64,000 nt of DNA from Candidatus Eiseniibacteriota bacterium (GTDB taxonomy: Bacteria; Eisenbacteria; RBG-16-71-46; CAIMUX01; VGJL01): contig JAXDAY010000028.1 of assembly GCA_034679345.1 (NCBI GenBank), positions 71,876 to 135,875 of the forward strand. The letters run 5' to 3'. The notes below the pieces were generated by a model. The model was not told the DNA's origin and searched no databases. It worked only from the letters and a program-made list of their open reading frames with translations. Of this stretch, positions 3,728 to 23,527 are shown piece by piece (within the stretch, counting starts at the first letter, position 1; every line of letters starts with the position of its first letter). The translations under genes were made by a program, and so were the position numbers.

Positions 3728-3819
3728 GCGGACACCTCCTGGTTGCGACGGGAGGAAGAGAAGCGGGGCCTCCGGGAATCTCCCGAAGGCCCCTGACGAT
3801 ACGGACGGAAGAACACGGG

Positions 3820-5224: not shown

Positions 5225-5321
5225 GGCGGAACCTCCTTCGGTTGGTGGGGAAGATGGGTTGGCAAGGAACGAGCGGATCGTTCCCCTTCACCGTACGGAG
5301 GGAGCGGATGCTTGCGTACGC

Positions 5322-5355
5322 GGCGGAGGTGCGGTCGGTCTCACGGGCTGTGGAT
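5322..5355 (+). repeat. copy C of a conserved ~35-bp motif (GGCGGAGGTrnGG-n-GTCTCAC-n-CTGTGGAT)
   Basis: ggcggaggtgcggtcggtctcacgggctgtggat, in the divergent intergenic region between 4562..5224(-) and 5451..6446(+). Matches copies at 9127 and 11097. Confidence 0.6.
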
Positions 5356-5450
5356 ACCAAAGACGCGATCGACCTTGTGTGCTATTGTGACGGCCGGCTT
5401 GGCCATGAAGGAAACGCGGCCGGCTGGAAGCAGATTGTCCGTAGGTCGAG

Positions 5451-7017: not shown

Positions 7018-7164
7018 GGCGTCGGGCCTTTCGGTGCCCTCCCGAGATGACCGCGCGGCGTGCCCCGTCTTGCTCGGGATGCACGGCCGTCGCGGCGGCA
7101 GTCCGCAAGGAGATCTGCCTTTGGAGCCCGGCCTCAGGAGAGGCCGCGGGAGGGCGGTGCTTGC

Positions 7165-7659: not shown

Positions 7660-8179
7660 GGGCGTGGCGTTTGAGGAGATAGAGGAAGAGCGCGGTACGC
7701 GAGCGGCGGATCGCCGTCGCTGGGACCGCGAGGGCGCCGGCGAGAGCGCGCTGCACGACCGCGTCGGGATGCGCATCGAGGGCCGCTTCCAGGAGATCTC
7801 GGTGGTCGGATTCGCCGAGCGCACGCTCGACCTTCGCGATCGTGAAGAAACGCTGGGGCTCGGCTGGCGCATCGGGAACGGGATCCGGAATGGAGGCGCG
7901 ACGGATCCGGATGCGCGTCGCTCCGTCGAGCCGCGTCGCGTCGATGTACCGCGCGGCCCGGAGATGCCCGAGCCAGCTGCGGATCGTGCCTTCGGGGAGA
8001 CCCATCGCGGTGGCGACCTCGGCCGGGCGGATCTCGAGCTCGGTCGCCCCGGCGGGGAGGCGCGCGAGGAGATCAAGGTAGAGCCAGACCGAGGCCCGCA
8101 TACGCCGGAGGTGGAACGCGCGCGGGTGTTCGAGGAGGCGGCGGTCAAGCGTGATCGTGAACTCGTGGGGATGGGACAT
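7628..8179 (-). CDS. winged-helix DNA-binding protein, paralog B
   Basis: Starts at an internal ATG (8179). ASVWLYLDLLARLPAGATELEIRPAEVATAMGLPEGTIRSWLGHLRAARYI is HTH-like. Paralogous to 8145..8807, including the C-terminal tail. Confidence 0.55.
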   Translation of the reverse strand: MSHPHEFTITLDRRLLEHPRAFHLRRMRASVWLYLDLLARLPAGATELEIRPAEVATAMGLPEGTIRSWLGHLRAARYIDATRLDGATRIRIRRASIPDPVPDAPAEPQRFFTIAKVERALGESDHRDLLEAALDAHPDAVVQRALAGALAVPATAIRRSRTALFLYLLKRHAHEQESNDPRP

Positions 8180-8807
8180 GGGGTTCGTGGGAGAACTTCT
8201 CGAGGAGGAAGCGGAGGAGCGCGGACTTCGACGCGCGGATCCGCGACCGAGGCGTGAGGCGGACGCGCCGTACCGCGCGCCGCGCGACGGGTACCGGGTA
8301 GCGGGCGAGGAGGGCCGGAAGGTCGTCTCCGGCCTCGCGGCCGAGCGCCTCACGGGCTTCGGCGAGGAGCGCCGCCCCTTCCCCCGCTCCCCCTTCCCCG
8401 CATGCAGCAGCAACTCCAGGAGTTGCTGCTGCTGCAAGCAGCTTGCTGACAGGTACAACTCTCATCGAGGAGCCGCTCGCAGAGCCGGATTCCGGGGCTT
8501 TCGGCGCGGGAGACGAGGATGCACCGGGCCAGAATCGCAGTCGGATGACAAGGTACGGGGAGGGAGACGTGATCGCGATGAGACCGGAGCGGGTGAGTCG
8601 GGCGAGACCTTCATCGATCGCCGAGGCGGAAGCGGAGAGCTCGCTCGCGAGGCGGTCGCGGGTGCGGATGACCCTGCCCCGATCGTTCGCCGCCAGCGCG
8701 AGGGCGATGTAGAGCGCGAGGGTACGATCCACCCCGCCCTCCGGTATGCGTGCGCGTAGCGCCGCCGCGAGCACGGAGCGAAGACCGGCGAGGGACGGGT
8801 CCGTCAT
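8145..8807 (-). CDS. winged-helix DNA-binding protein, paralog A
   Basis: Its ATG (8805-8807) overlaps the TGA of the XRE gene as ATGA. DRTLALYIALALAANDRGRVIRTRDRLASELSASASAIDEGLARLTRSGLI is HTH-like. Confidence 0.55.
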   Translation of the reverse strand: MTDPSLAGLRSVLAAALRARIPEGGVDRTLALYIALALAANDRGRVIRTRDRLASELSASASAIDEGLARLTRSGLIAITSPSPYLVIRLRFWPGASSSPAPKAPESGSASGSSMRVVPVSKLLAAAATPGVAAACGEGGAGEGAALLAEAREALGREAGDDLPALLARYPVPVARRAVRRVRLTPRSRIRASKSALLRFLLEKFSHEPHVPSPRVHDHA

Positions 8808-9088
8808 GCGTCCGTCGTCTTCGTCTCGCGCCGCCCACGCGGGTACGGGCAGTAGAGGCCCGCATAGAGAGCCTCGGTGAGCGTGTCGAGCGCCTTCGCG
8901 AGCAGGAAGAGGTTCGGCACCGTGGGGAGCACGCGACCGCGCTCCCAGCTCGACACCACGCTCCGATCGTGACCGACGAGTTCCCCGAGCCTCCGCTGGG
9001 TGAGACCCGCGCGGATCCGGTAGTACCGGATCGCATTCGGGAACCGCTCGGGCACCGTCGATCGCCTGAGGGTGTACTCGACCGTCAT
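8804..9088 (-). CDS. XRE-family (Cro/CI-type) HTH transcriptional repressor
   Basis: LTQRRLGELVGHDRSVVSSWERGRVLPTVPNLFLLAKAL is a canonical XRE HTH. Divergent from the recombinase operon. Confidence 0.85.
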   Translation of the reverse strand: MTVEYTLRRSTVPERFPNAIRYYRIRAGLTQRRLGELVGHDRSVVSSWERGRVLPTVPNLFLLAKALDTLTEALYAGLYCPYPRGRRETKTTDA

Positions 9089-9126
9089 GGCCCCACCCTA
9101 GCGGATACCAGGGAAACCGGAAGAGG

Positions 9127-9202
9127 GGTGGAGGTGAGACCTCTCTCACCCCCCTGTGGATAGGAGATTTGCCCACAGGGAGGTGATATCCCCTTCACCT
9201 CC
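9127..9202 (+). promoter_or_regulatory. divergent promoter/operator region; includes copy A of the ~35-bp motif
   Basis: Three inverted repeats: GGTGAGA-n4-TCTCACC (9133-9150), CCCTGTGG-n13-CCACAGGG (9152-9180) and GGAGGTGA-n8-TCACCTCC (9179-9202). Lies between the XRE repressor (-) and ORF 9247 plus the recombinase (+). Confidence 0.6.
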
Positions 9203-9246
9203 GCCGCCTACGACGTCCTCACGCGGCGCGGCATGCTGGGGTCGCC

Positions 9247-9432
9247 ATGCTCACGCAGAAGGCCATCGACGACCTCAAGGCGATCTGGCTCCGGAAGTAC
9301 GGGGAGCAGCTCACGGACGCGGAGGCGTGGGAGATGGGCAACCGCCTTCTCCGCGTCTTCGCCGTCCTCCTGCGTGCCCCCATGCCGAAGCGGGACGAGA
9401 AGGTTCGAACCGCGTCCACGAGCCTGTATTGA
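9247..9432 (+). CDS. small hypothetical protein (Cro-like or recombination directionality factor candidate)
   Basis: 61-aa ORF with balanced composition, immediately upstream of and co-directional with the serine recombinase, and divergent from the XRE gene. Confidence 0.45.
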   Translation: MLTQKAIDDLKAIWLRKYGEQLTDAEAWEMGNRLLRVFAVLLRAPMPKRDEKVRTASTSLY

Positions 9433-9486
9433 CGTGCTGCGGAACTTAATTCTACGATTCCTCCCTCGAGCATTGATCCCACGCCC

Positions 9487-11049
9487 GTGCCCCGCTACTT
9501 CCTCTACGCCCGCAAGTCGTCCGAATCCGAAGACCGCCAGGTCCTCTCGATCGACTCCCAGATCCGAGAGCTGACGGCGTACGCACACGCGCAGGGATTC
9601 GACATCGCGTCGGTCCTCTCGGAGTCGCGATCCGCGAAGGCGCCGGGGCGACCAGTCTTCGGGGAGATGATGACCGCGATCGCGCGCGGGAAGGCAGACG
9701 CGGTCCTCTGCTGGAAGCTCGACCGCCTCGCGCGCAACCCGGTCGACGGCGCCGCGCTCATCTGGGCCGTCGACGAGGGCAAGCTCAAGCAGATCGCGAC
9801 GCGCGACCGGGCCTTCGCGAACACCGGGAACGACAAGTTCTGGATGCAGCTCGAGTTCGGCATGGCGAAGAAGTACGTCGACGACCTCTCCGACAACGTG
9901 AAGCGCGGCAATCGGGCGAAACTCGAGCAGGGGTGGCTCCCCGGCGTGCCGCCGCTCGGGTACGTGAACGACCTGGCCACGAAGACGATCGTCAAGGACC
10001 CCGCGCGCTTCGACCTCGTCCGGCAGATGTGGGACCTCGTCCTCAAGGGCTGGTCGCCACCCGACGTCCTCCTCGTCGCGAACGAGGACTGGGGCTTCCG
10101 CACGCGGCAGTACCGCAAGAAGGGCGGCGGCCGGCTGCAGCGGAGCTACTTCTACCACATGCTCGCCGATCCCTTCTACTACGGCCTCATCCACCGCAGC
10201 GGCGAGACGTACCCCGGGGCGCATCCTCCGATGGTCTCGAAGGACGAGTTCGATCAGGTCCAGGAGATGCTCGGCCGGCCGAACCGCAGCCCGAAGCCCC
10301 AGCGCACCTTCGCCTTCACGGGCCTCATTCGCTGCGGGGAGTGCGGCGCCGCGATCACAGCGGAGGAGAAGGTCAACCGCCGCTACGGCTATCGCTACTG
10401 CTACTACCACTGCACGCGGCGCAAGCACGGAACGACCTGCCGTCAGGACGCCATCCGCGTCGACCGGCTCGAGACGCAGATCCGGTGCGAACTCCGGCGC
10501 ATCGCGATCGATGACGACGTCCGCGACTGGGCCATCGCGAACCTGCGGAGCGTCCATGAGCAGGAGACGCGCTCCCGCCAGGCGACGGATGTCTCGCTCG
10601 ACGCCGCCCTACGGGATGCGCAGAAGCGGCGCGACGCCCTCGTCGACCTGCGGCTGCGGGGCCTCCTCACGGATGCGGAGTTCCTGCCGAAGAAGCAGGC
10701 ATTGGTGGAAGAGGAGCTCCGTCTCCGGGAGCGTCTGACCGACTCCGACGGACGCGGCACCCACTGGTTAGAACTAGCCGAACGGGCCTTTCTCTTCGCG
10801 AATCAGGCCTTGAAACGCTTCAATACGGGGTCGCTCGAAGAGAAGCGCGAGATCCTCGTCGCGCTCGGTTCGAACTTTCTCCTCGAGGGCGGAAACCTGC
10901 GAATTCAGCTGCAAAAACCCTTCCACCTGATCGCGGAGGGGTCTCGAAATTCAAGTTGGCTCGGCATCGTGGACGGAGTTAGAACCTTCTTCGCTAACCA
11001 TCCACGTTTCATTCGATGGCCGTCGTTCTGTCTGCCGATCGCTGCGTGA
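9487..11049 (+). CDS. large serine recombinase (integrase)
   Basis: N-terminal resolvase domain YFLYARKSSESEDRQ with the catalytic Ser, a recombinase domain, a zinc ribbon (CGECG...CYYHC) and a C-terminal coiled-coil. 520 aa. Confidence 0.95.
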   Translation: MPRYFLYARKSSESEDRQVLSIDSQIRELTAYAHAQGFDIASVLSESRSAKAPGRPVFGEMMTAIARGKADAVLCWKLDRLARNPVDGAALIWAVDEGKLKQIATRDRAFANTGNDKFWMQLEFGMAKKYVDDLSDNVKRGNRAKLEQGWLPGVPPLGYVNDLATKTIVKDPARFDLVRQMWDLVLKGWSPPDVLLVANEDWGFRTRQYRKKGGGRLQRSYFYHMLADPFYYGLIHRSGETYPGAHPPMVSKDEFDQVQEMLGRPNRSPKPQRTFAFTGLIRCGECGAAITAEEKVNRRYGYRYCYYHCTRRKHGTTCRQDAIRVDRLETQIRCELRRIAIDDDVRDWAIANLRSVHEQETRSRQATDVSLDAALRDAQKRRDALVDLRLRGLLTDAEFLPKKQALVEEELRLRERLTDSDGRGTHWLELAERAFLFANQALKRFNTGSLEEKREILVALGSNFLLEGGNLRIQLQKPFHLIAEGSRNSSWLGIVDGVRTFFANHPRFIRWPSFCLPIAA

Positions 11050-11096
11050 TGTCATCATGCCACCAGCATACGATTCCGGTATGCGGGTGCGTAGGT

Positions 11097-11131
11097 GGCG
11101 GAGGTAAGGGGTGTCTCACCTCCCTGTGGAT
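11097..11131 (+). repeat. copy B of the ~35-bp motif, 48 bp past the recombinase stop (candidate att/recombinase-binding half-site or distal operator)
   Basis: ggcggaggtaaggggtgtctcacctccctgtggat. Same GGAGGT-to-TGTGGAT spacing (25 nt) as copy A. It has the CCCTGTGG left arm but lacks the CCACAGGG partner. Confidence 0.6.
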
Positions 11132-11249
11132 TCTCGGGCTAGTCCCGCACGAGAGACTGTAAGATGGCCCTGGTGAATCTGCAGGCGCTGATCGTGCCCG
11201 CAATCTCAGTCTGGCAAGACGCCTTTACGGGGCCTCATTGGAGCCCTGG

Positions 11250-12920
11250 TCATCTCAGAGATTCCACAATTGCGCGAAACGACTGCGCCAGCTCAGGAGC
11301 GCCGTCGAGCCAGGCCATTACGAGAATCGGGTTACCAGACGTACGGGGTATGCACACTGTCTCATAGGTATACGCGTAGTCTGCCGTCGTCACCCCCGGC
11401 TTGGTATGCAGTGTGAGGTGGGAGCTAGCAATGCCGCCAATATCCCATACTGATGAGGAGGTCACTTCGTAGTTTGGATTGTGGGCTGTGAAGAATCTGC
11501 TACAGTTCTCCATAGTTGAAAAGTCAAAGGTCGTCGCACTTGCATCAATGACGATTACGCGACCCGCGCCATGATAGTCTTCAAGCCCAGACACATGAGT
11601 GCCACCGATATCCCACGCAATACTGAAGTTAGGCGGGTATCGGAAAGTGAAGTCTTGTTTCGAATCGGTGTACGTGAGCCAGTCGCCCGGAACCGTCGAC
11701 GTGTTCGTTGCTGAGACCTTCAGGGATGCAAGGATGCTCTGGACGATACGGTGCATGCCGTCCGCCTGGGCAGCGGGGAGGCCGCCGTCAGCAGCGACGA
11801 TTTCGTCGACAACATCGCCCACCACGAGGCTTCCTCCCTCTGGGAGATCGAGAAGGTACGAGACGCCGATCAACGGCGGGTTAGCACGAAGACGCGTGAA
11901 GGTGTTGTGCCCAATAGTCACCGTCGACAGACGGTCGCTCGCAACATCCCTGAGGTAGTCCTCGACACCATCGTCCCGAAGAACGAGGGAGACTGGGGAC
12001 ACAGGCGAACCTTCAAATGCGTAGGTCGCGCCCCTGGGCTGCAGATGAATCACGGTGACATATCCAGACGCCTCGACGAGATCCCAATCTTGCGGGTATC
12101 GAAACGAGAATCCGCGCGCATCCGTATGGATCTGCCAATCGTTCGTGAGGGCTTCGACGGCGCCCGCATCGGTGAACGATTGCAGAATGCCCTCAAAGGC
12201 ATCTAGCTTCTCCTTCGTGCTGGTCAGTCCGACGTACGCCGCGCAGGCGTCCTTTACGGTCATGTCACCCGTCGCGATGGCATCGATCGGTGGGCCTTCA
12301 TCGGTGAACGCGATGGTGAACCGATACTCCGGCGTCAGTGTGATGAACGAGACCGCGTAGCGCGGCCCACCCTCGCTGCCACCGCAGTCCTCACTTCGGT
12401 AGCCGCGGACACCTTGGGACGTGGTCATCCGTGACACCGTCGCACTGGGGTATGTGAGCCAGGATGGGATGTCTCCGCCGTCAATGTACGCCTCCTCCTG
12501 TACAACGCTGGTCTTCGTGACATGGGGTGCTAGTTCTGGCAATGAGGCCCGATCCTCGACGGTGATCTGATACCGTACCGGACCACGCTCGACCAAGAAC
12601 GGGTGGTAGGAGTCGTGGTACTCACTGAGTGCCCACGTCGCATCGTACGTCACCGCGAAGCCATAGTTGAGGTTGGTCAGACGCGTCAGTCCCGTGCCTT
12701 GCAGTGGGGCGATGATATACTGCACAGTGGAATCGGCTTCCGGCTCTGCCAAGGGCGGTGTCACGACGCCTATATTGGTGTCAGTGTTGGTATTATCACC
12801 CGTCGTGTTCTCCTGATGCTCCTGGAAATACCAGGCGCCAACGCCAACAAGCACCAGCGCGAGAGCAGCGGCGAGGTGTTGGAAAGTAATGATCCTCTGA
12901 CAGCTAAGCGAGTTCCTCAT
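11250..12920 (-). CDS. hypothetical exported protein (low-GC, likely acquired)
   Basis: ATG at 12920 gives MRNSLSCQRIITFQHLAAALALVLVGVGAWYF (signal/anchor) then an N/T-rich linker. About 52% GC against a ~68% background. Confidence 0.55.
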   Translation of the reverse strand: MRNSLSCQRIITFQHLAAALALVLVGVGAWYFQEHQENTTGDNTNTDTNIGVVTPPLAEPEADSTVQYIIAPLQGTGLTRLTNLNYGFAVTYDATWALSEYHDSYHPFLVERGPVRYQITVEDRASLPELAPHVTKTSVVQEEAYIDGGDIPSWLTYPSATVSRMTTSQGVRGYRSEDCGGSEGGPRYAVSFITLTPEYRFTIAFTDEGPPIDAIATGDMTVKDACAAYVGLTSTKEKLDAFEGILQSFTDAGAVEALTNDWQIHTDARGFSFRYPQDWDLVEASGYVTVIHLQPRGATYAFEGSPVSPVSLVLRDDGVEDYLRDVASDRLSTVTIGHNTFTRLRANPPLIGVSYLLDLPEGGSLVVGDVVDEIVAADGGLPAAQADGMHRIVQSILASLKVSATNTSTVPGDWLTYTDSKQDFTFRYPPNFSIAWDIGGTHVSGLEDYHGAGRVIVIDASATTFDFSTMENCSRFFTAHNPNYEVTSSSVWDIGGIASSHLTLHTKPGVTTADYAYTYETVCIPRTSGNPILVMAWLDGAPELAQSFRAIVESLR

Positions 12921-12975
12921 AATGTCACTTCGCAACGTTGCGTCTACACTGTATCAGGGACAGCGCCACGATGTG

Positions 12976-14655
12976 CTACTCAACCCACCCGAGGTAAGTC
13001 GTGAACGCTGTTTCCACGGGGGAACGGTAGACAATTGCGCCTGTGTGCACATCAACTAGATAGAAGCGTCTCGTACCATCTGCCAACTGGGTACATGGCA
13101 CCATGAGGTATCCATCGGGTGTCATTGCAAGCACATCATACTCCTCGGCATTAGCAGGCAGTACTGCTAACTCGGCTTGCTGACCCTGTAGCGTTCGTGT
13201 GATGAGGTGGAGTTGATTGTCGTCTTGCATAGTCGCAACGACGACGGCATCATCTGACACAAAGGTGGCGGTTAGGAGCGAGCCTGGCACGCTAAAGGTG
13301 TCCTCGGTCGTAGCGTCCACGTCGGCTACAGACACGGAGCGCTCATGATCATTCGGGTATTGCGGAGATGATATGTACAGAATATGCCGCATATCAGGGC
13401 TGATCGCAGCTTGCAGGTATTGGCGAGCATCATCGTGTACGAGCGGATGGACTAGGTAGGGATCGGCTGGTGCGGAGAGCCAAACGCCGGGTTCGGAGTA
13501 TCCTCCGGGATTGGCGACCACATATTCATCAGTACTTGGTGACCAAGAAAGCCGATTCGTCCCCCCGCCGATGCTAAGCCTTTTGAACCCTGCGGGATGG
13601 TTTGGCTCCATGATGGCATAGTAACCACCCTCATAGTAGCCTAGCGAGAGATTGATGTACTTACCGGATGGGGACCACCCAGGATTCGCGAGGGAATAGA
13701 CCCCGTCGAGACCGTCCAGCGACCATTGTGGCGCCATCTCGGTATCCCCAGGAGGTCGACTCGTGATATCAAACAATCGCCGGGTGGTACCCGTCACACG
13801 ATCCCATATCGCCACCCCATCCTGTTCGACAAAGAGCAGATCGGAACCGTTTGGTGCGAGAGCGATGCTAGGCGGTCTCATGCTCCAATAGTTAGAATTC
13901 ATTTCGGCTGGCAACGACTCATCATACGTAAAGAGCGTTGTTGCACTGGCGTTGCTCGTGTTGAGTATCCACACGGTGACCTGCGTTCCAGACTTCGTTG
14001 CATAGAGCATCCTAGCATGGCTCATCACAGCCACATTGTCGACCGGTGGCAACAACGTGAAGCTCTCCCGCAGCGTCTCTAGGCGCAATGCACACATTTC
14101 CTGGTAGTCCGGCATCGTAGCTGACGCGAGTGAAACGAGATACAGAGAGTCGGTTATCTGGGTTGATTCTACTATCTGGGAAGTATTGTCGCGTGATCGC
14201 CAGATGCTTACTTCACGCGTTGCCCCGGCAATATCCTCCGTACGACTGCCATCCTGATCAAAGGTTGCCAGGAACGTAGTTGGTTCTACCGTGTATACAC
14301 GCAATTCGCACGGCAAACCACCAGTGAAGAACACCGCATAGTCCTTGTTGCTGAGATCCATATACTCGCCGAGTACGCTCCAATCGAAATAACTATAGCC
14401 AATCGAATATCCAAGAAGATCATTCGTGAAGCGGCGTGTGAGGAGGAAGTCAGACTTACGTGGATGGAGGCTTTGCGTCTCGTTCGTCGAGGGCACCGGC
14501 ACGGTTGTATTGTAGGTTGTGGCAGCCATGTTTGTGTCGCCCTGATCACGGGTCACGAAGTAGTACGCACCCGTAACGAGGAGCGTCAGGACAAGGACGA
14601 AGGCCAGAACAGGTAGGGTGGTGATGCTGTTGAGGTTGGATGGGGTCTTAGACAT
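12976..14655 (-). CDS. exported beta-propeller protein (TolB-like PD40 repeats)
   Basis: ATG at 14655 gives MSKTPSNLNSITTLPVLAFVLVLTLLVTGAYYF. WSPSGKY and SWSPSTDEYVV repeats are PD40-like. Low GC. Confidence 0.55.
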   Translation of the reverse strand: MSKTPSNLNSITTLPVLAFVLVLTLLVTGAYYFVTRDQGDTNMAATTYNTTVPVPSTNETQSLHPRKSDFLLTRRFTNDLLGYSIGYSYFDWSVLGEYMDLSNKDYAVFFTGGLPCELRVYTVEPTTFLATFDQDGSRTEDIAGATREVSIWRSRDNTSQIVESTQITDSLYLVSLASATMPDYQEMCALRLETLRESFTLLPPVDNVAVMSHARMLYATKSGTQVTVWILNTSNASATTLFTYDESLPAEMNSNYWSMRPPSIALAPNGSDLLFVEQDGVAIWDRVTGTTRRLFDITSRPPGDTEMAPQWSLDGLDGVYSLANPGWSPSGKYINLSLGYYEGGYYAIMEPNHPAGFKRLSIGGGTNRLSWSPSTDEYVVANPGGYSEPGVWLSAPADPYLVHPLVHDDARQYLQAAISPDMRHILYISSPQYPNDHERSVSVADVDATTEDTFSVPGSLLTATFVSDDAVVVATMQDDNQLHLITRTLQGQQAELAVLPANAEEYDVLAMTPDGYLMVPCTQLADGTRRFYLVDVHTGAIVYRSPVETAFTTYLGWVE

Positions 14656-14769
14656 GGGTAGCGGGATGCTCTCCAATGTGGCACAGAGACCGGTGATGTC
14701 AAGGTAGGGGGAACGACCCCCGGATGGGAACCAAAGAAAAATCCCCAAGGAGGCTTGGGGATCGGCGGG

Positions 14770-16935
14770 CTACCGCACGATGACGATGCGCCGGGTCGGT
14801 GCGGTCGCCTGCGGGAGCCGGTAGAAGTAGACGCCAGAGGAGAGCTGCGGGAGCGAGCGCTTGAGCGCACCTGCCGTGAGCTGCTCCGGCTTGAGGTCGA
14901 GGGTGGTGACGAGCCTGCCGGCGACGTCGTAGACGCGGATGGGCACGGTCCCCTCCTTCGTCCGGCTGAGGACGATCGTCGGGTCGTCGACCGGCGGTTC
15001 GGGAGGCGGGACCTTCCAGCTCGGGTGGCCCCCATCGCAAGCATCCCAGGAGCCGTAGCCGTTCGATTGGCGGTCGAAGCACTGGTAACCAGTCGATGCG
15101 ATGTAGACCGCGAAGTCCATCCGGCCATCGCCATCGTAATCACCGACGCGAACCGGGTCGGAGGTGCTGCCGTAACCGCCGAACGGAGGATCTGTCCAGC
15201 TTCCGAACCCACCGCCATCCGCATGATAGTCCACATGCCAAACATGGTTGGCATCCCGGACCGCGATGTCGCAGTAGCCGTCACCATCGTAGTCGGCGGG
15301 GCACGGTGTGTCCGGGTAGCCGCCGTAGCCACCGAGGTTCGTGACATCCCAGGTTCCAGAACTGCCGAAGGCGTTACTCAAGGACGTTCCCGGATCGAAG
15401 TAGTTGATGAGGAACTTCCGGTCCGAGTTGCGGAGGAGAGCGATGTCCACGTACCCGTCGCCGTTGAAGTCACCAGCGCAGGGGCTGTCGTAGATCGTCC
15501 CGCCGTCGTGGGTCGCATCCCACCCGGTGAAGCCATTGCTCGAGAAGTCGAAACGCCAGTACCCGTTCGTGTCGCGGACGGAGATATCGGCCTTCCCATC
15601 GCCGTCGAAGTCTGCCCCGACGGGCGCGTCGCCGTAGCCGCCGTAGCCGCCGAGGTTCGTGACGTCGTACCCACCGAGGTTGTTGCACGCGTAGTCGATG
15701 AGGAACTTCCGATCAGAGTTTCGAAGGACGGCGATGTCGCAGATGCCGTCGCCGTCGTAGTCGGCCGGGCAGGGCGTATCCTGGGTGCCACCGTAGCCCT
15801 GGCCGACCCAGGCGTCCCACCCGCTCATGCCATCCGCGTCACCGCAGAAGTCGATGTGGAAGAGGCCGTCCGAGGTGCGGTCCCAGGCATCGGAGAGGCC
15901 GTCGCCGTCGAAGTCGTACGGCGTGTGGTGAGCTACGTCGACGTGCACCGAGAAGTGCGTCTGTCCCCAGCCTCCGATGATCTCGGTGTCGAAGCAGGGG
16001 CCGAAGTAGACGTCGTACGTGCCGTGGGCGATCGGCCGGATCCTGCCGACGAAGTTGAAGGTCGCGACCCCGTTCGTTGCGACGCTCGTTTCCTCGAAGG
16101 TGCAGGGCGACGGACAGCTGTTCCAGTCGTAGGGAGCTGGAGCGGTACAGGGGTAGTTGAAGAAGCTCTCCCCGATGGTTGCGGATTCGTTGCACGACGC
16201 GAGCTCGACGTACCCTTCCGGGTGTTGCTGGGCATTGCTGTACCACGTCGCCGACCCCGTGTTCCGGAACTTCACCTGGCAGGTGACGTAGTCGTACATG
16301 TGGTACGGGCCAGAGGGACTGATGGACTTCGAGACGAAGGTGCAGGCGAGTGTTGGCTGGGGCGGCGGAGGAGGCGTGTCGTTGCCATAGAGGATTGGAT
16401 CGGTGAACAGGCCGCCATCGTACGTGTAGGGGTCGACTGCCGTCCAGGCGCTGTTGATCCACGCGCGAGTCTCCAGATGAAGATGGTACCCGCCTCCGTA
16501 ACCGCATTCAGGGACCCCGTCGTGATCCACATCCGAGGCCGTGTACCCCGAGTTACTTGACTTCCCGATGTACTGCCCAGCAACGACAGTCTGCCCACCA
16601 TAGACCACAACAGTTCCGGCGAGCATGTGAGCCTCGATCACCTGTAGGTGGTACTGATCGTTCTGGATCTTGACGTAGTTGCCGTAATTTGGCGGGTCGC
16701 ATACCTGCCCGGCAACATCACCGATTGCAGTGATCACGGTGCCACCGATCGCTGCGTAGACATTCGTGCCCTGTGGACACCGGTAGTCCACACCAGGATG
16801 CCCATCGTAGCAGGCATCGCCGAACGGACACGTCACATTCCGAGCGCCGTCGAATGGGAACCAGAGCACCTTGGCGCCGAAAGCGACACCCGTGACCAGG
16901 GACATGAAAAGCACCAGAAGAACAAGAGCCCGCAT
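14770..16935 (-). CDS. M23 family metallopeptidase with FG-GAP/VCBS repeats and a T9SS-type C-terminal sorting domain
   Basis: Signal peptide MRALVLLVLFMSLVTGVAFGA with AGGAGG upstream. M23 motifs HPGVDYRCPQGT and HLHLE. Repeated DFDGDG/DYDGDG. C-terminal tail VYDVAGRLVTTL...SGVYFYRL. Confidence 0.85.
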   Translation of the reverse strand: MRALVLLVLFMSLVTGVAFGAKVLWFPFDGARNVTCPFGDACYDGHPGVDYRCPQGTNVYAAIGGTVITAIGDVAGQVCDPPNYGNYVKIQNDQYHLQVIEAHMLAGTVVVYGGQTVVAGQYIGKSSNSGYTASDVDHDGVPECGYGGGYHLHLETRAWINSAWTAVDPYTYDGGLFTDPILYGNDTPPPPPQPTLACTFVSKSISPSGPYHMYDYVTCQVKFRNTGSATWYSNAQQHPEGYVELASCNESATIGESFFNYPCTAPAPYDWNSCPSPCTFEETSVATNGVATFNFVGRIRPIAHGTYDVYFGPCFDTEIIGGWGQTHFSVHVDVAHHTPYDFDGDGLSDAWDRTSDGLFHIDFCGDADGMSGWDAWVGQGYGGTQDTPCPADYDGDGICDIAVLRNSDRKFLIDYACNNLGGYDVTNLGGYGGYGDAPVGADFDGDGKADISVRDTNGYWRFDFSSNGFTGWDATHDGGTIYDSPCAGDFNGDGYVDIALLRNSDRKFLINYFDPGTSLSNAFGSSGTWDVTNLGGYGGYPDTPCPADYDGDGYCDIAVRDANHVWHVDYHADGGGFGSWTDPPFGGYGSTSDPVRVGDYDGDGRMDFAVYIASTGYQCFDRQSNGYGSWDACDGGHPSWKVPPPEPPVDDPTIVLSRTKEGTVPIRVYDVAGRLVTTLDLKPEQLTAGALKRSLPQLSSGVYFYRLPQATAPTRRIVIVR

Positions 16936-16987
16936 GTCGTACCTCCTTTGGGAAACACCAGTATGTTGTGAAGGGGCAAGCCGAGAG

Positions 16988-17644
16988 CTACCGAACAAGC
17001 GCGAACGTGGGAAGAACGGTGCCACAGACATTGTCGAAGCACGAAAGAACGAGAGTCTTCTGCCTCCAGGTGAGAACGTAGTAGACAAGGCTGGTATCAC
17101 GCCCGTATTGTGCTACACCCTGTTTGGCGGGCACTCCAGCAAGTTGCGTGTCGGTCCAGACAGGGACACCGTCCAGCGTGGACAGGTATGCGGTAACTGC
17201 AGGCTGAGCGTCATCGACGATATCGACGGTGACATAGGTGGAGCCACCTTCGTAGGGCACGGTGATATCACTGAGAAGGTGACCGTCGTAGGCTGCGCTG
17301 TTTATGGTGGTGTTGTCGGTAACATGGAGTGTGTCGTAATACCGGAATGCGTAGCCCCATGGATCGCTTGTATATGTAATCAATGATGATGGCGTATTGA
17401 CATTCGATATGGTGTCTGTGTTGCTAAGGGTATTGAGATTCTGATCGCCAGGGGTTGTGTTGAGAGTATTGGCGACAGAGTGTGTGTTGTTCAGGTTGCT
17501 GGTATTGGTGGTCACGACGATGCTCGTGTTCCTCCGGTCACGGTTCGGAAAATACACCGCGCCTGCGACGATAACTGCCAGGACGAGGACGATGGCCAAG
17601 ACGGGAAGTGAGGCGATGCCGCGAGGACTAGGGTGCTTCGGCAT
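16988..17644 (-). CDS. hypothetical exported protein with an N/T-rich linker (low-GC)
   Basis: ATG at 17644 gives MPKHPSPRGIASLPVLAIVLVLAVIVAGAVYF, then NTSIVVTTNTSNLNNT.... Same N-terminal architecture as 11250..12920 and 12976..14655. Confidence 0.5.
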   Translation of the reverse strand: MPKHPSPRGIASLPVLAIVLVLAVIVAGAVYFPNRDRRNTSIVVTTNTSNLNNTHSVANTLNTTPGDQNLNTLSNTDTISNVNTPSSLITYTSDPWGYAFRYYDTLHVTDNTTINSAAYDGHLLSDITVPYEGGSTYVTVDIVDDAQPAVTAYLSTLDGVPVWTDTQLAGVPAKQGVAQYGRDTSLVYYVLTWRQKTLVLSCFDNVCGTVLPTFALVR

Positions 17645-17801: not shown

Positions 17802-18551
17802 TCAACTCCCAAGGGGGGATGGGGGGTACTCGATGGTTTCCGCAGTGCCGAGCAGACGCTCCGCGTAACGGTTGCCCGCCTCACGGACCCACCTCTCGCG
17901 GACGACGATTGCCCAGACAGCGATGAGGAACAGGTTGACGATTCCGGCAAGAAGCACGCTGACCTCAAGCGCTCTCCCTTCCGCAACCAGGTACCAGACC
18001 CGGAGGCCGCAGGCGACGATGCTGAACCCACAGAGAAGGATCCCCAGTACCTTGAGTGCCCAGAGGTTTCGCCGCGTGCCGTAATTTACATTCTCCTCGA
18101 ACACGAGGGGGAACAGTGCATGATCGCGGGTCCGCTCCCGCAGGTAGTCCACGCAGCTGTCGTACGCCGTCCCAGCAGCCCCGAGGTCTCGGGTTTCCTC
18201 TTCCGGGGTCAGCGGGATCGCGATGTGCGGGAGGATCGCAGCGAGCTTGTGGTGGTGGCGGTCCAGCGACGCCGGGTTGAGCCAACTGGTCTGGTAGGAG
18301 AGTGCATTCGTCGTCGGTTTGCCCCCCGTCCGGAAGAGGGACCGCTCCCGTCGCCGGCCTGCGTCCCGCCCGATCTGCGAAAAAACGAGAGCGAGCACGA
18401 TCATCGAAGCCGCCACGGCGGGGAGGGACCAGAGGTCCTTCTCTGCCGGAAACCAGGAGATGACAGCGAGCCCCACGGGGAGCAAGGTGACGAACCACGG
18501 GCCGATTCGCGCCTTGAGCGTATATGGGTCGAAGAAGCCCGCTGCGTTCAT
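17802..18551 (-). CDS. hypothetical 4-TM membrane protein
   Basis: Two N-terminal and two C-terminal hydrophobic helices around a ~100-aa soluble segment. Lies 19 nt downstream of the MBL gene on the same strand. Confidence 0.6.
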   Translation of the reverse strand: MNAAGFFDPYTLKARIGPWFVTLLPVGLAVISWFPAEKDLWSLPAVAASMIVLALVFSQIGRDAGRRRERSLFRTGGKPTTNALSYQTSWLNPASLDRHHHKLAAILPHIAIPLTPEEETRDLGAAGTAYDSCVDYLRERTRDHALFPLVFEENVNYGTRRNLWALKVLGILLCGFSIVACGLRVWYLVAEGRALEVSVLLAGIVNLFLIAVWAIVVRERWVREAGNRYAERLLGTAETIEYPPSPLGS

Positions 18552-18569
18552 GGTGTCATCTCCTGCATG

Positions 18570-19649
18570 TTAGTCCTCCTCCTCATCGTGGGTCGCAGCA
18601 AAGGCGATCGCTGTTGCCGGGCTCCAGTTCTCCCGCACGCGCAAGTCGGAGCTGTGGTGGTACAGAGCGGTCCCTTGTGTCTTGAAAGTCCGCGCGCCGC
18701 GCCGGACGAGGGCGTTCGTCACCCGCTTCGACGGGTGGGTCGGCTCCCCCTTCGCCGCGACGGAAATGGAGCAGACCTTCCCGTTGGTTTCACCCTCCCT
18801 GACAATCGGGCCAATGAGTCTGTTGAGCAGCATCGGGCCGACATTCCGCTTGCTCCCATGGTGAGGAACCTGGATGTGCATAAGATTCCGGAGGTCCACG
18901 CCGGTCATCCCCGCGAAATCGAGGGCTCGCGAGATCGCATCGACACCCGCGTCCCCCGTGAAGAGAAAGGCCCGCTCGCCGAAGTCCACCCGCAGGACAA
19001 CGGAGGAGTTGTTCTCGGCGGTGACGCAGTCCGGATCCGGCTCCAGAAGCGCATCCTCATTCCACGTCTCGTGGATGGTCTTGAAGAACTTCCGAACCGC
19101 GGCAATGAACGACTTGCCAGTGACCGGCTCCTTGAAGGAGAGGAGGAGTTCTCGGTAGTACGTCTCGGTCGGGCCAAGCACGCGAAGGATGCCGTCCGCT
19201 GTCGCGACTCCCGCGAAGGGTTCCACGATCCGGACCCCCTTCCTCCCCGCGAGGTCCTCGAGGTCGCTCGCAGCGGCCAGTGACCTCTCCAAAGCTGTCG
19301 GTGCCGCTGGTGCACGCGTCCCGATGGCCCTCCTGAGCGCCTTGATCTGCTCGGCGTGCTCCCACGGCCTGTGCATGAGGAGCGTGCCGACAGATAGTTC
19401 CTCGAGGATGACCCGAAGACCCGACACATGGTCGTTATCCGGATGCGTAGAGAACACATAGTCGACGTGGCTCGTCCCGTACACATCGCGGATGTGCCGA
19501 ACGAGGTCCTCGCCGGACTTCTGGAAACCTCCGTCGACCACGACCACCGTCTGCGTCCTAGAACTGCTCAGGTCGCCGTATCGGAACGCGATCGCATCGC
19601 CGCTGGCCGATTCATCCCCTACCGGCCGGTAATCAACCTCGTAACTCAT
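18570..19649 (-). CDS. MBL-fold metallo-hydrolase
   Basis: STHPDNDHVSG (an HxHxDH-type variant), later HHGSKRN, and the beta-lactamase fold spacing. Confidence 0.8.
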   Translation of the reverse strand: MSYEVDYRPVGDESASGDAIAFRYGDLSSSRTQTVVVVDGGFQKSGEDLVRHIRDVYGTSHVDYVFSTHPDNDHVSGLRVILEELSVGTLLMHRPWEHAEQIKALRRAIGTRAPAAPTALERSLAAASDLEDLAGRKGVRIVEPFAGVATADGILRVLGPTETYYRELLLSFKEPVTGKSFIAAVRKFFKTIHETWNEDALLEPDPDCVTAENNSSVVLRVDFGERAFLFTGDAGVDAISRALDFAGMTGVDLRNLMHIQVPHHGSKRNVGPMLLNRLIGPIVREGETNGKVCSISVAAKGEPTHPSKRVTNALVRRGARTFKTQGTALYHHSSDLRVRENWSPATAIAFAATHDEEED

Positions 19650-19799
19650 GGAATATCCCTTTCCGTCTTCGGTGCGGAGTGTGACCGCTTTCCGAGAGTG
19701 TTACTGATCGGATCTCCTGGGCTCATCGCGCGGAGGAGCCCTAACACGTGGCACTGTAAGCGGTTTTTTGTGAACAGTCAAGCAACGAAAAAGCGCCGC

Positions 19800-20537
19800 T
19801 CATTCCTCCATCTGCAACCGCATCTGGTCCAAGGAGTTCGGGAGTGCACCGAGCTCCTGGAGCCGGTGATTCACGACCTGCATGCTGACGTCGAACATCC
19901 GCATGATCTCGCGGACGATCGTCTCCAACATCCTGTCGCCAGCTGCATCGAGTAGGGAGGTGAATCCCCGATCATCGAGCAACGAACGGACTGCATCAAG
20001 GGTCTCTCGCTTCGGCAGAAGGAGGCTCGCCATTCCACGATTGGCCTGGTACTCCCACCACTTTCCATCGTACCCGCTTCCCGAATCACGGAAACGCCAG
20101 AGGGAATCCCCTCGGCACATGATCTTCGGTTCGTCAGGCGGCGGGTCACCGAAGAGCGACTGCGTGGCTGTGTCGACGAGGTAGAGCTGGGTGTGCATGA
20201 CGACGTGGGCGCATTCATGCGCCAGCGTGCTCCGGAAACGACGCCGGGCGACGTCATCGTGTTCAGCGGCTTCGGAGAGTTCCCGGCTGATGAATACCTC
20301 ACAGCGCCCGTCGCCGTGGAAGTGCGTCTTGCCGAGGATCCCTTCGGGGAGCGGGATGTAGTCGGGAACGATGTTGTGGGCCCTTTCGAGGACCGCCTCG
20401 ACATCGACCCCACGACCCGCAGTGAAATGCGGGACATCGGCACGTTGCCGGGATTCATCCATGATGAGATCGAACTCATGGCTCTCGAACCAGATCGTCT
20501 GCCCCCAGGGGCTTGCTGGGTCTCGCCGTGTCCTCAT
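19800..20537 (-). CDS. ImmA/IrrE-family metallopeptidase
   Basis: LAHECAHVVMH is the HEXXH motif. Its start overlaps the stop of the upstream XRE gene as ATGA. Confidence 0.8.
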   Translation of the reverse strand: MRTRRDPASPWGQTIWFESHEFDLIMDESRQRADVPHFTAGRGVDVEAVLERAHNIVPDYIPLPEGILGKTHFHGDGRCEVFISRELSEAAEHDDVARRRFRSTLAHECAHVVMHTQLYLVDTATQSLFGDPPPDEPKIMCRGDSLWRFRDSGSGYDGKWWEYQANRGMASLLLPKRETLDAVRSLLDDRGFTSLLDAAGDRMLETIVREIMRMFDVSMQVVNHRLQELGALPNSLDQMRLQMEE

Positions 20538-20896
20538 TTTCCTTTCTTCTTCTTCCGCTGCTCTTCTTCCTCCAGCCTCCGTAGAATCTCCCGGGGGTCC
20601 TTTCCCGTGTCCCGCATGCGACGGAGCATGTCCCTCACGCCTGGTGTCGCGTCAGCCCACGCCCGAACATCGGGGTCGATCCGTGTATCGAGCTTGGAAA
20701 GCTCCGGCAACGACGCCCCGACCTCTTTCAGCGCGTCCACCATCCGCTTCAGTAGAGGTGGAGGTGGCCTACGCCGGTCGTGCTCGATGTCCGACTGGTA
20801 CGCTGCGGAGATCTCCATCGTCTCTGCGAATTTGCGAAGCGTGATGCCGGCTTCTGTGCGTAAACGTCTGATTTCCTGCCCCAGAGTTGGACCCAT
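20534..20896 (-). CDS. XRE-family HTH transcriptional regulator, partner of ImmA
   Basis: IRRLRTEAGITLRKFAETMEISAAYQSDIEHDRR is an XRE HTH. The C-terminus is lysine-rich. Confidence 0.8.
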   Translation of the reverse strand: MGPTLGQEIRRLRTEAGITLRKFAETMEISAAYQSDIEHDRRRPPPPLLKRMVDALKEVGASLPELSKLDTRIDPDVRAWADATPGVRDMLRRMRDTGKDPREILRRLEEEEQRKKKKGK

Positions 20897-20970: not shown

Positions 20971-21414
20971 TCAGTCGGCATCACCTTCTGATTCTTCCTT
21001 GAGGAACCGCCCAATGAGGTCCCTACAGGTCCTGGTCGGCCGGTGCCTCCCCTTCTCCCAGTCGAGCACCGAGCTCGGGTCGACCCCTAGTCGCAGGGCG
21101 AGGTCGGCGTGGGAGAGCCCGAACCGGCGACGGGTCGCCCGAAGCCGTTCTCCGAGCGTGGACCCGGTCTCGGTCGGGTCGTAGCCGAGGAACCGTAGCA
21201 CCCCCGGGAGCGCCCGGAGGTTCGGTGAGGCGGTTCCCGCCTCCCAGTTGAAGACCGTGGTCGGATCGACTCCGATACGCAACGCAACCTCGCGCTGCAG
21301 GAGGCCGAGGTCCAGGCGGCGCTTGCGGACGTGGTCGCCCAGAGAGCGGAGTTCCGTAGGGTATTCCGGCGCAAGGGGTTTCGGGCATCGGAGTTCCAAG
21401 TGGCAGAATGGCAA
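20971..21414 (-). CDS. XRE-family regulator with two tandem HTH domains
   Basis: Two HTH units: LRSLGDHVRKRRLDLGLLQREVALRIGVDPTTVFNWEAG and LGERLRATRRRFGLSHADLALRLGVDPSSVLDWEKG. Confidence 0.75.
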   Translation of the reverse strand: MPFCHLELRCPKPLAPEYPTELRSLGDHVRKRRLDLGLLQREVALRIGVDPTTVFNWEAGTASPNLRALPGVLRFLGYDPTETGSTLGERLRATRRRFGLSHADLALRLGVDPSSVLDWEKGRHRPTRTCRDLIGRFLKEESEGDAD

Positions 21415-21908
21415 CGCAGGGATGTCCCTGCGGATTCCTCGGCGACCCGAGGCGCGCCTGCCAATGCAGCCCCACGCGAATCCAGCAGTACCGTGGCCGT
21501 GTGAGCGGGCCGCTCATGGACCGGATCGACCTCCACATCGAGGTGGCGCGCGTCCCGATCGAGGCGCTCGACAGCGATCAGCCGGGCGAGTCTTCGGCAA
21601 ACGTCCGCCGCCGCGTGATCGCCGCGCGCGAGATCCAGCAGCGTCGCTTCGTGCAGGCGCCGGGCATCCACACGAATGCCCAGATGTCGATCCGTCACCT
21701 GTTCGAGCACGCGCAACCCGACGGGCGCGGGCGCGCGCTGCTCAAGATGGCGGGGGAGCGGATGGGGTTCTCGGGGCGGGCGTTTCACCGCGTCATGCGC
21801 GTCGCGCGCACGATCGCGGATCTCGACGGATGCGAGACGGTGGGAGAGAAGCAGATCGCCGAGGCGATCGGATACCGGGTGCTGGATCGGCAGAGCCCCG
21901 ACTCGTAG
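21408..21908 (+). pseudogene. comM: comM/yifB (Mg-chelatase-like AAA+ competence protein) 3' fragment; the N-terminal ~330 codons are absent
   Basis: GCPCGFLGD...RVSGPLMDRIDLHIEV...FHRVMRVARTIADLDGCETVGEKQIAEAIGYR matches the ComM/YifB C-terminal third. There is an in-frame stop at 21357 and the upstream sequence is not ComM-like. Overlaps the divergent XRE gene start. Confidence 0.8.
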
Positions 21909-21923
21909 CGAGGATCGCGGGCT

Positions 21924-23021
21924 CTACCGGAACAGCCAGCGCATCTTGCCCCAGCTCACCGCCTCGACCGCCGTATCGATGCATCCGAGGCCACGCGCGC
22001 CGATCACGCCGCACTGCACGCCTCCATGCTCACCCGGAAGACAGGGCGAGCTCTCGAGCAGCCCCACGTCACCGCTGTCCGGATCGCAGAAGAGGGGATC
22101 CTCCGAGAAGTTCCCATGCGACGGCAGATTGTCGCACCACCAGCCCCGGTAGTCCCCGAGCTCGTTTCCCCATACGTCGCAGCACTCCAACGACTTGACG
22201 TTGAAGTCACATTCCACGCCATAGCCGTTGATCGTCTCCGCGATGATGCAGTGGGACACGGCACCTGCCCAATCACCCATATTGTCTGCCAGAGTACTCC
22301 CGAACCCACTGCGAACCTCGTTCCGGAACAGCGTACAGCGATGCATGCTGTGAACGATCGTCGCCGATACAGCCGCCCCATCATCCGACTTGTTCCCGAT
22401 GAAGATGCATTCCTCCATTGTGAGGTTTCCCGCGTCCACTGCCCCTCCCAAGCGACCCGACTCATTGTCGATGAAGACGCATCTCCGTATCTCTGTCGGG
22501 TCTGCCCCCGACTTGATCGCTCCACCGGTGTTCGACTCGTAGCTTGGATCCGTCGACTTGTTGTTGTAGAAGGTGCAATCCTCGACGATAAGCGACCCGT
22601 ACCCACGGATCGCTCCTCCACCGCTCAAGACGCTCTCATTGCTGTCGAATGTACAATTCCTAACAACGAGCTCTCCACCTCCGAATAGAAGTGGGGATCC
22701 TTCATTGAAGATCCGTAGATTCTCGACCATCGCATCGATGTGATCAAACAACATGCTGATCCGCAATGCGGTCTCTTCAGGACGGGAACCAGCGCCACGG
22801 ATCGTTAATGGTCCTTGAGTCAACCGGTTGTCGAATACATCGAGGCCATCGTATTCATCGTACGTTCCTGGCTCGATGAGGACTGAGTCCCCTCCGCTCG
22901 CTGCTAGAACTGCCTCCCGCACGAGCATGAAGTCCCCCCCTCCCCCCTGATCGACGATCCAGGTACGCGCGAGAACCGGAGCGGCAATCAGTACCAAGGC
23001 GACCGTGACGATGACACGCAT
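21924..23021 (-). CDS. secreted right-handed parallel beta-helix repeat protein
   Basis: Signal peptide MRVIVTVALVLIAAPVLA. Repeated G-rich beta-helix rungs (NCTFDSNES, EDCTFYNNKS, RRCVFIDNES, EECIFIGNKS). Confidence 0.75.
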   Translation of the reverse strand: MRVIVTVALVLIAAPVLARTWIVDQGGGGDFMLVREAVLAASGGDSVLIEPGTYDEYDGLDVFDNRLTQGPLTIRGAGSRPEETALRISMLFDHIDAMVENLRIFNEGSPLLFGGGELVVRNCTFDSNESVLSGGGAIRGYGSLIVEDCTFYNNKSTDPSYESNTGGAIKSGADPTEIRRCVFIDNESGRLGGAVDAGNLTMEECIFIGNKSDDGAAVSATIVHSMHRCTLFRNEVRSGFGSTLADNMGDWAGAVSHCIIAETINGYGVECDFNVKSLECCDVWGNELGDYRGWWCDNLPSHGNFSEDPLFCDPDSGDVGLLESSPCLPGEHGGVQCGVIGARGLGCIDTAVEAVSWGKMRWLFR

Positions 23022-23188: not shown

Positions 23189-23527
23189 CTAAATACGCAA
23201 CTCCCGCTGGATCAGGAAACGGGATCGGGTCAGCCCGTCGCCGAGAACCCTCAGGGGCTTCTCCCACATGAAGATCTCAGGATCCGTTGGATCGTCATGC
23301 CCTTCTTCTCGATACACTCCAGGCCGGATCAGGACGGAGTCCCCTGCGGAAGCTGCCTCACACGGGGCGGCTACGGAGGCGAAGTCCCCGGTGCCGTCCT
23401 GCGCGACGATCCAGGTGCGGGCCAGACTCGGACGGGCGGCAGCGACGAGCCACAGCCACCCGATAGCGAGAAAACACGATGATATCAATGATGGTTGAAT
23501 AGTCCCCAGAAGTGGCGGTTGGGACAT
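23189..23527 (-). pseudogene. truncated paralog (N-terminal ~110 aa) of the beta-helix protein
   Basis: ARTWIVAQDGTGDFASVAAPCEAASAGDSVLIRPGVY aligns with ARTWIVDQGGGGDFMLVREAVLAASGGDSVLIEPGTY of 21924..23021. The ORF ends after 112 aa. Confidence 0.55.

Follow-up and report, generated by a model that had tools for sequence, protein, structure and literature searches.

We analysed a 64,000-nucleotide (nt) stretch of DNA from a Candidatus Eiseniibacteriota bacterium (GenBank assembly GCA_034679345.1, contig JAXDAY010000028.1, positions 71,876 to 135,875 of the forward strand; hereafter, the window), in which the gene comM is present as a 3' fragment, denoted comM', bordering about 21 kb of accessory DNA. 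We observed one breakpoint within comM, a conserved sequence at the end of the adjoining DNA, a conserved gene for an XRE-family regulator next to this end, variable cargo behind it, and a composite structure of the DNA between 1 and 21.4 kb. Taken together, these observations indicate that comM' is probably the comM 3' end at the right junction (attR side) of an island that entered comM by site-specific recombination and belongs to a widespread family of elements capped by an XRE gene. The cargo in their interior varies from one island to the next and consists largely of anti-phage defence genes, with mobilisation genes in some.

The comM fragment and its junction with the island

The features at the junction, in window coordinates, are the following:

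21408-21908, plus strand: comM' open reading frame (ORF), 166 amino acids (aa), identified by Pfam, tblastn and comparison with intact comM, which encodes AAMNPCPCG at this point
21404-21424, no strand: conserved element end and crossover point, CAGA-ATGGCAACGCAGGGA / TG, common to 38 distinct junctions
21415-21432, no strand: dyad spanning the junction, CGCAGGG-ATGT-CCCTGCG, read from the sequence (predicted 7-bp stem, z -1.6)
21423-21950, no strand: comM-homologous segment ('R') with a 42-nt tail, up to a second boundary (ends of Logan contigs; drop in divergence between loci L003 and L124)
20971-21414, minus strand: double helix-turn-helix (HTH) XRE-family regulator, with two HTH_3/HTH_31 domains in Pfam (start placed at 21399 by the gene caller)

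The initial annotation, made from the sequence without database searches, had taken the ORF at 21408-21908 for the C-terminal part of ComM only, and both Pfam and tblastn bear this out, the similarity surviving alignment. The ORF spans ComM residue ~348 to the end of the protein, that is, the tail of the AAA+ module followed by the Mg_chelatase_C domain, and is 80% identical to the C-terminus of the uninterrupted relative P0001. Mg_chelatase_C (PF13335) is complete (positions 1-94 of 94, E 9.7e-31), whereas Mg_chelatase is matched at profile positions 154-205 of 207 only (E 2.6e-14), the ORF lacking the complete AAA+ core and N-terminal ChlI/Lon-like domain (Mg_chelatase positions 1-207). A full-length ComM from a relative (L075, 513 aa) yields a single tblastn match in the window (residues 348-509 at 21411-21893), and the N-terminal halves of seven close full-length ComM queries detected no ComM N-terminal similarity in the whole 64 kb, even at E<5, in agreement with the earlier observation that no 5' part of comM is present. 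A 27-nt match between 2561-2587 and the 3' end of comM' was considered as a left remnant and rejected, as an alignment identified it as a chance resemblance. The window contains no tRNA genes.

Upstream of comM', the in-frame stop noted previously at 21357 is indeed there (TAG, 21357-21359), and the 16 codons between this TAG and the ATG are unlike ComM; the divergent XRE regulator reported in place of the AAA+ core is likewise present, with its 5' end abutting or overlapping the junction motif. Alignment to intact comM refines the island boundary, previously put at ~21.4 kb and a real edge of inserted DNA, to 21422/21423: element DNA ends at 21422 and comM DNA begins at 21423 (TGTCCCTGCGG). 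In intact comM, this point reads GCN ATG AAY CCN TGY CCN TGY GG, coding AAMNPCPCG, and the break lies directly 5' of TGYCCNTGYGG, which codes CPCG, at the TG of the first Cys codon. The junction consensus across loci is CA(A/G)A-ATGGCAACGCAGGG(A/G) TGY CCN TGY GG, with an almost invariant element end of ~21 nt; the window has a single occurrence of the 26-nt junction sequence, where 0 would be expected by chance. Given that the junction codons are constant and differ from the reading of intact comM, the first five codons of the comM' ORF (MATQG) are element-derived, and comM proper starts from the TG of the first Cys.

Among the loci retrieved with degenerate protein patterns, which range from 47% to 67% in guanine plus cytosine (GC) content, the codons GCA ACG CAG GGR show zero synonymous variation, and the junction DNA stays constant while the proteins flanking it fall to 35-50% identity. 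The dyad places an element arm (CGCAGGG) as the mirror of a comM arm (CCCTGCG) around ATGT; this arrangement resembles a recombinase site, but given its weak fold statistic we regard it as suggestive only. A dyad centred on TG would be compatible with hybrid attL/attR sites around a 2-bp core.

Recurrence of the same break in relatives

The same break recurs in Candidatus Eisenbacteria, Bacteroidetes and unclassified metagenome contigs, at 38 distinct junctions that combine pattern matches in metagenomes with genome loci from the protein-based search; the insertion thus occupies a single fixed position inside the comM ORF. The genome scan covered one genome per species, and most of the comM copies in it are intact. 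ComM residue 348 is the first residue of the fragment in the window and in L002, L003, L018, L031, L070 and L073 (twice), whereas the start is at residue 350-352 in L004 and L046 and at residue 332 in L082, a Rhodothermales chromosome. Copies truncated at residue 348 come from Bacteroidetes (L018, L031), unclassified bacteria (L070, L073) and Candidatus Eisenbacteria (L002/L005). Among the database proteins most similar to the fragment, several are 164-166 aa in length and are encoded on long contigs. The scan of metagenome contigs, carried out with an exact motif pattern, added 35 junctions, many of them at contig ends; 29 of these 35 contigs, those with a tblastn-detected fragment, are truncated at that same start.

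The XRE gene recurs with the break: at the 38 junctions, a homologous XRE gene precedes the motif wherever the upstream sequence can be read. Homologs of the regulator (34-78% identity) adjoin the fragment in all truncated loci compared except L046, and in an all-against-all protein comparison the regulator was the sole island protein of the window with homologs in the relative loci. L002, L003 and L004 share one layout, in which a divergent double-HTH XRE gene is followed by the 166-aa ORF, and the genes further left differ. Three cases are informative on how the break arises. In L082, a diverged motif (9/15 bases) stands at the same breakpoint; L113 contains a second XRE gene and a degenerate motif after which, directly past GGG/TG, the DNA is unrelated to comM; and L124 and L125, which belong to one species, are 99.9% identical rightwards from ~35 nt upstream of the ATG and carry different XRE alleles to the left. 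These three cases favour site-specific recombination over chance deletion.

Of the ~24 fragments whose downstream sequence is long enough for evaluation, six or seven carry a frameshift or a truncation, a share of decayed copies that is as expected if the fragments are displaced copies. In L109 (1145-4174, motif-forward orientation), the N-terminal region of the XRE protein appears fused to a ~1000-aa ORF, and the sequence after the junction motif has no detectable comM similarity.

Arrays, the second boundary and the fate of comM

The left side of such islands is visible in L073, where a complete comM (552-aa ORF) precedes two 3' fragments that both carry the motif. The three copies are ~90% identical to each other and mosaic; the full copy and fragment A have ~180 nt in common past the stop codon, and fragment B enters different DNA. 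An intact gene together with a displaced fragment, as an element-borne 3' copy would produce, is seen in this relative. Other loci form multi-copy arrays: L002 carries a further fragment, decayed, 8 kb downstream; L018 has two junctions separated by 5.6 kb; and in L095 a comM 3' end lies 3.8 kb from a junction. Two XRE/motif ends are present in L113.

In the window, a second boundary follows comM'. Three Logan contigs, obtained from as many samples, share an end at 21950, 42 nt past the comM' stop, and this common end places a boundary at the far end of the comM-homologous segment. Two Logan contigs also end at 3817; positions 21950 and 3817 are repeat ends or strain-variable breakpoints. A comparison of L003 with L124 points to the same edge: the N-terminal part of the XRE gene, the fragment and a 49-nt spacer are only ~83% identical (dS, the synonymous divergence, 0.58-0.72; dN/dS, the ratio of nonsynonymous to synonymous divergence, 0.13-0.19), whereas the adjoining host genes are 97-100% identical (dS 0.02-0.11), with the divergence dropping ~50 nt past the comM' stop. 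Since the fragment is far more diverged than the host genes, it arrived with island DNA in at least one of the two genomes. The second boundary fits array dynamics, with the copy of an older element being kept, or else crossovers located where the repeat ends on its far side. Past the stop codon there, the sequences showed no conserved motif. To the right of 21950, the window encodes beta-propeller and FG-GAP proteins, an asparagine synthase and a Ser/Thr kinase, an ordinary chromosome-like content for the lineage. Two beta-helix genes there (21924-23021 and 23189-23527) share an N-terminal stretch that is 50% identical, and the second, much shorter, may be a fragment.

By analogy with these relatives, each element would bring its own copy of the comM 3' end, and its integration would rebuild an intact comM at the left end and push the previous 3' end to the right. 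The rebuilt comM would again be a target, and elements would therefore stack into arrays, from which units devoid of a recombinase could be lost, swapped or moved, either through homologous recombination at the repeated 3' ends or through the action of a recombinase in trans. Judging from the literature, the responsible enzyme is most likely a large serine recombinase. Because an intact comM stands at the other end of the array in L073, comM may be intact to the left of the window here as well, and the earlier statement that it survives only as a 3' fragment may not hold. Loss or preservation of comM, and hence of efficient natural transformation, hinges on this left end.

Several points weigh against the site-specific insertion reading. 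The window does not contain the left end, be it attL, the 5' part of comM or an intact comM, and among the 120 full-length database matches listed for a chimeric full-length query no ComM is more than 68% identical to the fragment, so that no candidate for the genome's own intact ComM emerged. For this genome, the rebuilding of comM would be extrapolated from relatives, and 21 kb is a lower bound for the insert. The only recombinase in the 21 kb is treated as belonging to a nested element with a target of its own, because its closest relative adjoins parAB rather than comM, and the small complete units in L073, L095 and L113 are devoid of a recognisable recombinase. Part of the motif conservation in the metagenome matches arises by construction, the motif being the search pattern; the evidence for nucleotide constraint therefore rests on the loci found with protein patterns. 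Finally, the L003/L124 comparison implies that the fragment can travel with the island, a misfit with a single simple insertion.

Alternative explanations

The most serious alternative, to which we assign a clearly smaller but real chance, is plain disruption: an element without a replacement 3' end would have split comM, leaving the gene inactive and its 5' two-thirds at the far left of the island, beyond the window. A window with neither the 5' part of comM nor an intact comM is what such an event would leave, and no near-identical full-length ComM appears among the database matches listed; disruption is also the outcome described for phage WO type sr1WO and for most elements of this kind (PMC9203015, PMC10083194). 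It is at odds, however, with the intact comM of L073 followed by two fragments with common downstream sequence, with the multi-copy arrays of L002, L018 and L095, and with the shared break of the three Logan contigs where the comM-homologous segment ends, which is the behaviour expected of a repeat.

Homologous recombination might instead account for everything, the islands spreading by transformation or conjugation through Campbell-type or double crossovers in the ~530-bp homology of the comM 3' end, with the conserved 21 nt serving as an XRE operator or translation-start signal. The small units without recombinases, the mosaic copies in L073, the position of the L003/L124 exchange boundary at the repeat's far end, and the overlap of the motif with the start region of the XRE gene would all be accommodated. 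We nevertheless consider this unlikely: the left edge of homology is the same in several distant lineages, whose comM genes have diverged too far for homologous recombination to transfer the structure between them, L113 joins the motif to non-comM DNA at the same base, and other integrase families use almost the same site.

A little less probable still is a reading in which the fragment is no scar: the islands would carry the XRE gene together with the 166-aa ComM C-terminal ORF as a functional two-gene module (for example, for interference with transformation or as a sensor). In favour of such a module, the junction retains an in-frame ATG, the ORF is intact in most copies (163-168 aa), the start regions of XRE and comM' overlap, and the dN/dS of 0.19 (L003 vs. 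L124) goes with a divergence deeper than that of the host flank. Low dN/dS would be expected anyway, however, if the copies diverged inside working comM genes, and about one quarter of the evaluable copies are frameshifted or truncated, L082 has no ATG, copies within one genome resemble that genome's own comM, and the L124/L125 fragment is identical to the level of the host flank while the XRE genes differ.

A Tn7-like insertion, which would be of the AbaR/Tn6022 type, or a simple deletion of the 5' part of comM is very improbable, although Tn7-like elements and a deletion had both been raised in the initial annotation: while comM is a known Tn6022-type target in Acinetobacter (PMC11472951), no TnsA/B/C or TniQ-like domains were found among the 24 ORFs scanned in 1-21.4 kb, and in Acinetobacter the remnant covers ComM from residue ~281 onwards, against 348 here, which puts the AbaR-type site ~67 codons further upstream; independent deletion is ruled out by the identical junction in 38 loci, many of them in unrelated genomes.

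Beyond site-specific insertion into comM, the family might amount to more. As a tentative proposal, to which we give well under an even chance, the XRE gene, the 21-nt end and the comM 3' copy would constitute a cross-phylum, integron- or SCC-like cassette platform, in which small, mostly recombinase-less XRE-capped units, each with defence or mobilisation cargo, are stacked at one comM codon; each would rebuild comM and thereby restore the target, and a recombinase with its gene elsewhere would move them. In that case, the motif would provide a simple sequence handle for defence islands as well as a new pair of att site and recombinase in poorly studied phyla.

Accessory DNA to the left of the junction

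The initial annotation had estimated an insert of at least ~10 kb and possibly the whole of 2.5-21.4 kb or more. A large insert is upheld, with all of 1-21.4 kb being accessory-looking (at least 21 kb). The region is composite: the XRE-capped island, in which the candidate defence system lies, occupies 11.2-21.4 kb, and a separate recombinase element extends from 2.5 kb or further left to 11.1 kb. This composite nature, with the nested serine recombinase element, had been missed, as had the second boundary ~42 nt past the comM' stop. With the island boundary fixed to the base and the adjacent 21 kb recognised as composite accessory DNA, the result bears on the annotation of this genome. The genes of the island and the neighbouring element are the following:

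20534-20896, minus strand: CapH-like XRE protein (PADLOC capH, 2e-07)
19800-20537, minus strand: CapP-like M78 peptidase (PADLOC capP, 2.7e-06)
18570-19649, minus strand: metallo-beta-lactamase (MBL)-fold protein matching the PADLOC candidate system PDC-M48B (E 5.5e-81)
17802-18551, minus strand: 249-aa protein without an assigned family, its gene being next to that of the MBL-fold protein
11250-17644, minus strand: four secreted/membrane protein genes (556 aa, 559 aa, an M23 peptidase with FG-GAP repeats and a type IX secretion system (T9SS) tail, and 218 aa; Pfam and gene calls)
9487-11049, plus strand: large serine recombinase, the last gene of the nested element, after a 61-aa ORF
2532-11130, no strand: separate nested or adjacent mobile element, with 66-78% nucleotide synteny with L132; its left limit lies at or to the left of 2532

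The genes at 17802-20896 together resemble a candidate regulated defence system, which may be regulated by DNA damage. Known or candidate defence cargo is found in the window, as the PDC-M48B match and the CapH/CapP-like genes, and in the relatives, where it includes an OLD-family nuclease with a UvrD helicase (Gabija-like), KwaA/KwaB, Dcm/Vsr and DUF4062 proteins. Other cargo of the relatives comprises an HATPase_c_3 protein, an aerolysin-like protein, a DUF900 hydrolase, a Toprim protein (L070) and a coupling-protein-like ATPase (L118), and L082, with MobC, a relaxase and a coupling protein, is therefore a mobilisable element. The four genes at 11250-17644, in a stretch of low GC (55-58%), are either island cargo or trapped host DNA. 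Lower-GC patches at 1000-2400 and 11000-15000 (55-58% vs. ~65%) hold small ORFs for membrane or secreted proteins without a family match. The pair of the 218-aa and M23 genes (14770-17644) is also present in L123 (16738-19777), in the opposite orientation, and in both loci it lies between a recombinase element and the comM' junction.

The nested element and the search for the recombinase

The element at 2532-11130 encodes a DUF932 protein, a phrog_10276 'DNA repair protein' match, a PD-(D/E)XK nuclease, a DUF3644 protein, two RuvC-like proteins, an HTH protein and the 61-aa ORF in addition to the serine recombinase. In L132, RadC stands at the position corresponding to the phrog_10276 gene, and the recombinase is again the last gene, with host parA, parB, topA and dprA directly next to it and neither comM nor an XRE gene nearby. 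Two 40-nt inverted repeats (9173-9212 and 11090-11129, 85% complementary) lie on either side of the serine recombinase gene and the 61-aa ORF before it; both repeats are hairpin-like (GGAGGTGA...TCACCTCC), with related copies elsewhere in the element, also at 5315-5344 and 9130-9153, and they could be terminators, operators or recombination sites.

A search of viral contigs returned no relatives of the serine recombinase. A related recombinase cluster is located 16 kb left of the XRE/comM' junction in L123/L124, and a distant one more than 12 kb left of it in L118; no serine recombinase was seen within 10 kb of the junction in L002, L003, L004 and L082. L123 has three serine recombinase genes, one of them inverted. 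In the ORFs scanned against Pfam and PHROGs, from which the tnsA/B/C and TniQ-like domains are absent, there was no match to a tyrosine integrase (Phage_integrase) either, and it is the XRE regulator that stands at the junction. The proteins adjoining the repeat in L073 were considered as hidden recombinases and rejected, as they have a secreted-protein-like domain in common and no recombinase signature.

The junction motif is absent from IMG/VR, and a literature search for the motif sequence in open-access text returned only unrelated eukaryotic papers. A free form of the element was sought in phage and plasmid records and rejected, the matches being full-length comM on mislabelled bacterial contigs. 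MT835691, MT835672 and MT835528 ('Bacteriophage sp.') resemble bacterial contigs and carry full-length comM, and L128 (CAKLQH020000037.1, 'Acinetobacter phage MD-2021a') is similarly like a bacterial contig, starting inside comM at the AbaR-type break and continuing into chromosomal genes. The XRE/ATGGCAACGCAGGG end is an easily searched marker: as the metagenome search pattern, alongside the protein-based search of genome contigs, it led to 38 junctions next to varied defence-like cargo, and it could serve to mine defence systems and the matching recombinase/att pair.

Comparison with known systems

According to Durrant et al. (2022, PMC10083194), 12.4% of the predicted site-specific large serine recombinases have homologs of a Mg chelatase/ATP-dependent protease as their target, and competence genes are enriched among targets. 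Those elements resemble the present family in their site-specific insertion at a conserved position within the comM coding sequence, in the variety of element types (phage, integrative and conjugative or mobilisable elements (ICE/IME), and other), and in a short dyad around TG at the junction. They differ in that they are described as disrupting the target, whereas the relatives analysed here show a regenerated comM with displaced 3' copies, and in that no serine recombinase is tied to the junction here. In Wolbachia, the Mg chelatase gene is the integration target of phage WO of type sr1WO, whose 3' end carries HTH_XRE genes (Bordenstein & Bordenstein 2022, PMC9203015), a likeness at the level of the target gene and of XRE genes at one end. 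This phage is, however, a full prophage with single-domain XRE genes and the recombinase at the opposite end, in contrast to one double-HTH XRE gene, defence-like cargo and no phage structural genes seen in the island here. In Acinetobacter, comM is interrupted by AbaR (Tn7-like) and, separately, by further elements with defence systems (PMC11472951). The AbaR/Tn6022-type islands share the comM target and are large and variable, but carry transposase machinery, of which there is none among the ORFs scanned here, in addition to the difference in insertion site noted above.

Insertion into this stretch of comM is thus already established; the XRE-capped invariant end, the replacement of the 3' end and the arrays were not found in the open-access literature searched. 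Counterparts of these features exist at other genes. Islands of the staphylococcal cassette chromosome (SCCmec) type at rlmH/orfX insert in the 3' part of a conserved gene that is kept intact, and they share with the present elements the repeated att-bearing segments, the tandem arrays and units without their own recombinase that rely on one from elsewhere; the repeat is ~15-20 bp there vs. ~530 bp here, and the target, the hosts and the recombinase genes (ccr) differ. Phage 21 and e14 at icd likewise bring a substitute 3' end, with which the gene works on while the old 3' end is left at the far junction, but in their case a tyrosine integrase adjoins the att site, the replaced segment is ~165 bp, and there are no arrays.

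A counterpart close in position is the P. aeruginosa record NZ_CP070468.1 (L134), in which a tyrosine-recombinase trio abuts a comM fragment beginning ATGAATCCCTGTCCC. The break falls within the same AAMNPCPCG-coding stretch, with the junction 6-15 nt further upstream, recombinase genes instead of XRE at the junction, and the ATGGCAACGCAGGG motif absent. The record is labelled as a P. aeruginosa plasmid and has a stretch (1983-8441) with the chromosomal genes betT, pchP and rep; two integrase genes and two hypothetical genes in it abut a comM 3' fragment starting ATGAATCCC. Assignment of the trio to the GInt family was considered and rejected, the GInt paper reporting no comM specificity. A different recombinase family thus uses almost the same comM site, and the AAMNPCPCG-coding DNA of comM emerges as a convergent landing site, within the same ~15 nt of which at least two kinds of element, the XRE-capped islands and the P. 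aeruginosa tyrosine-recombinase element, break the gene.

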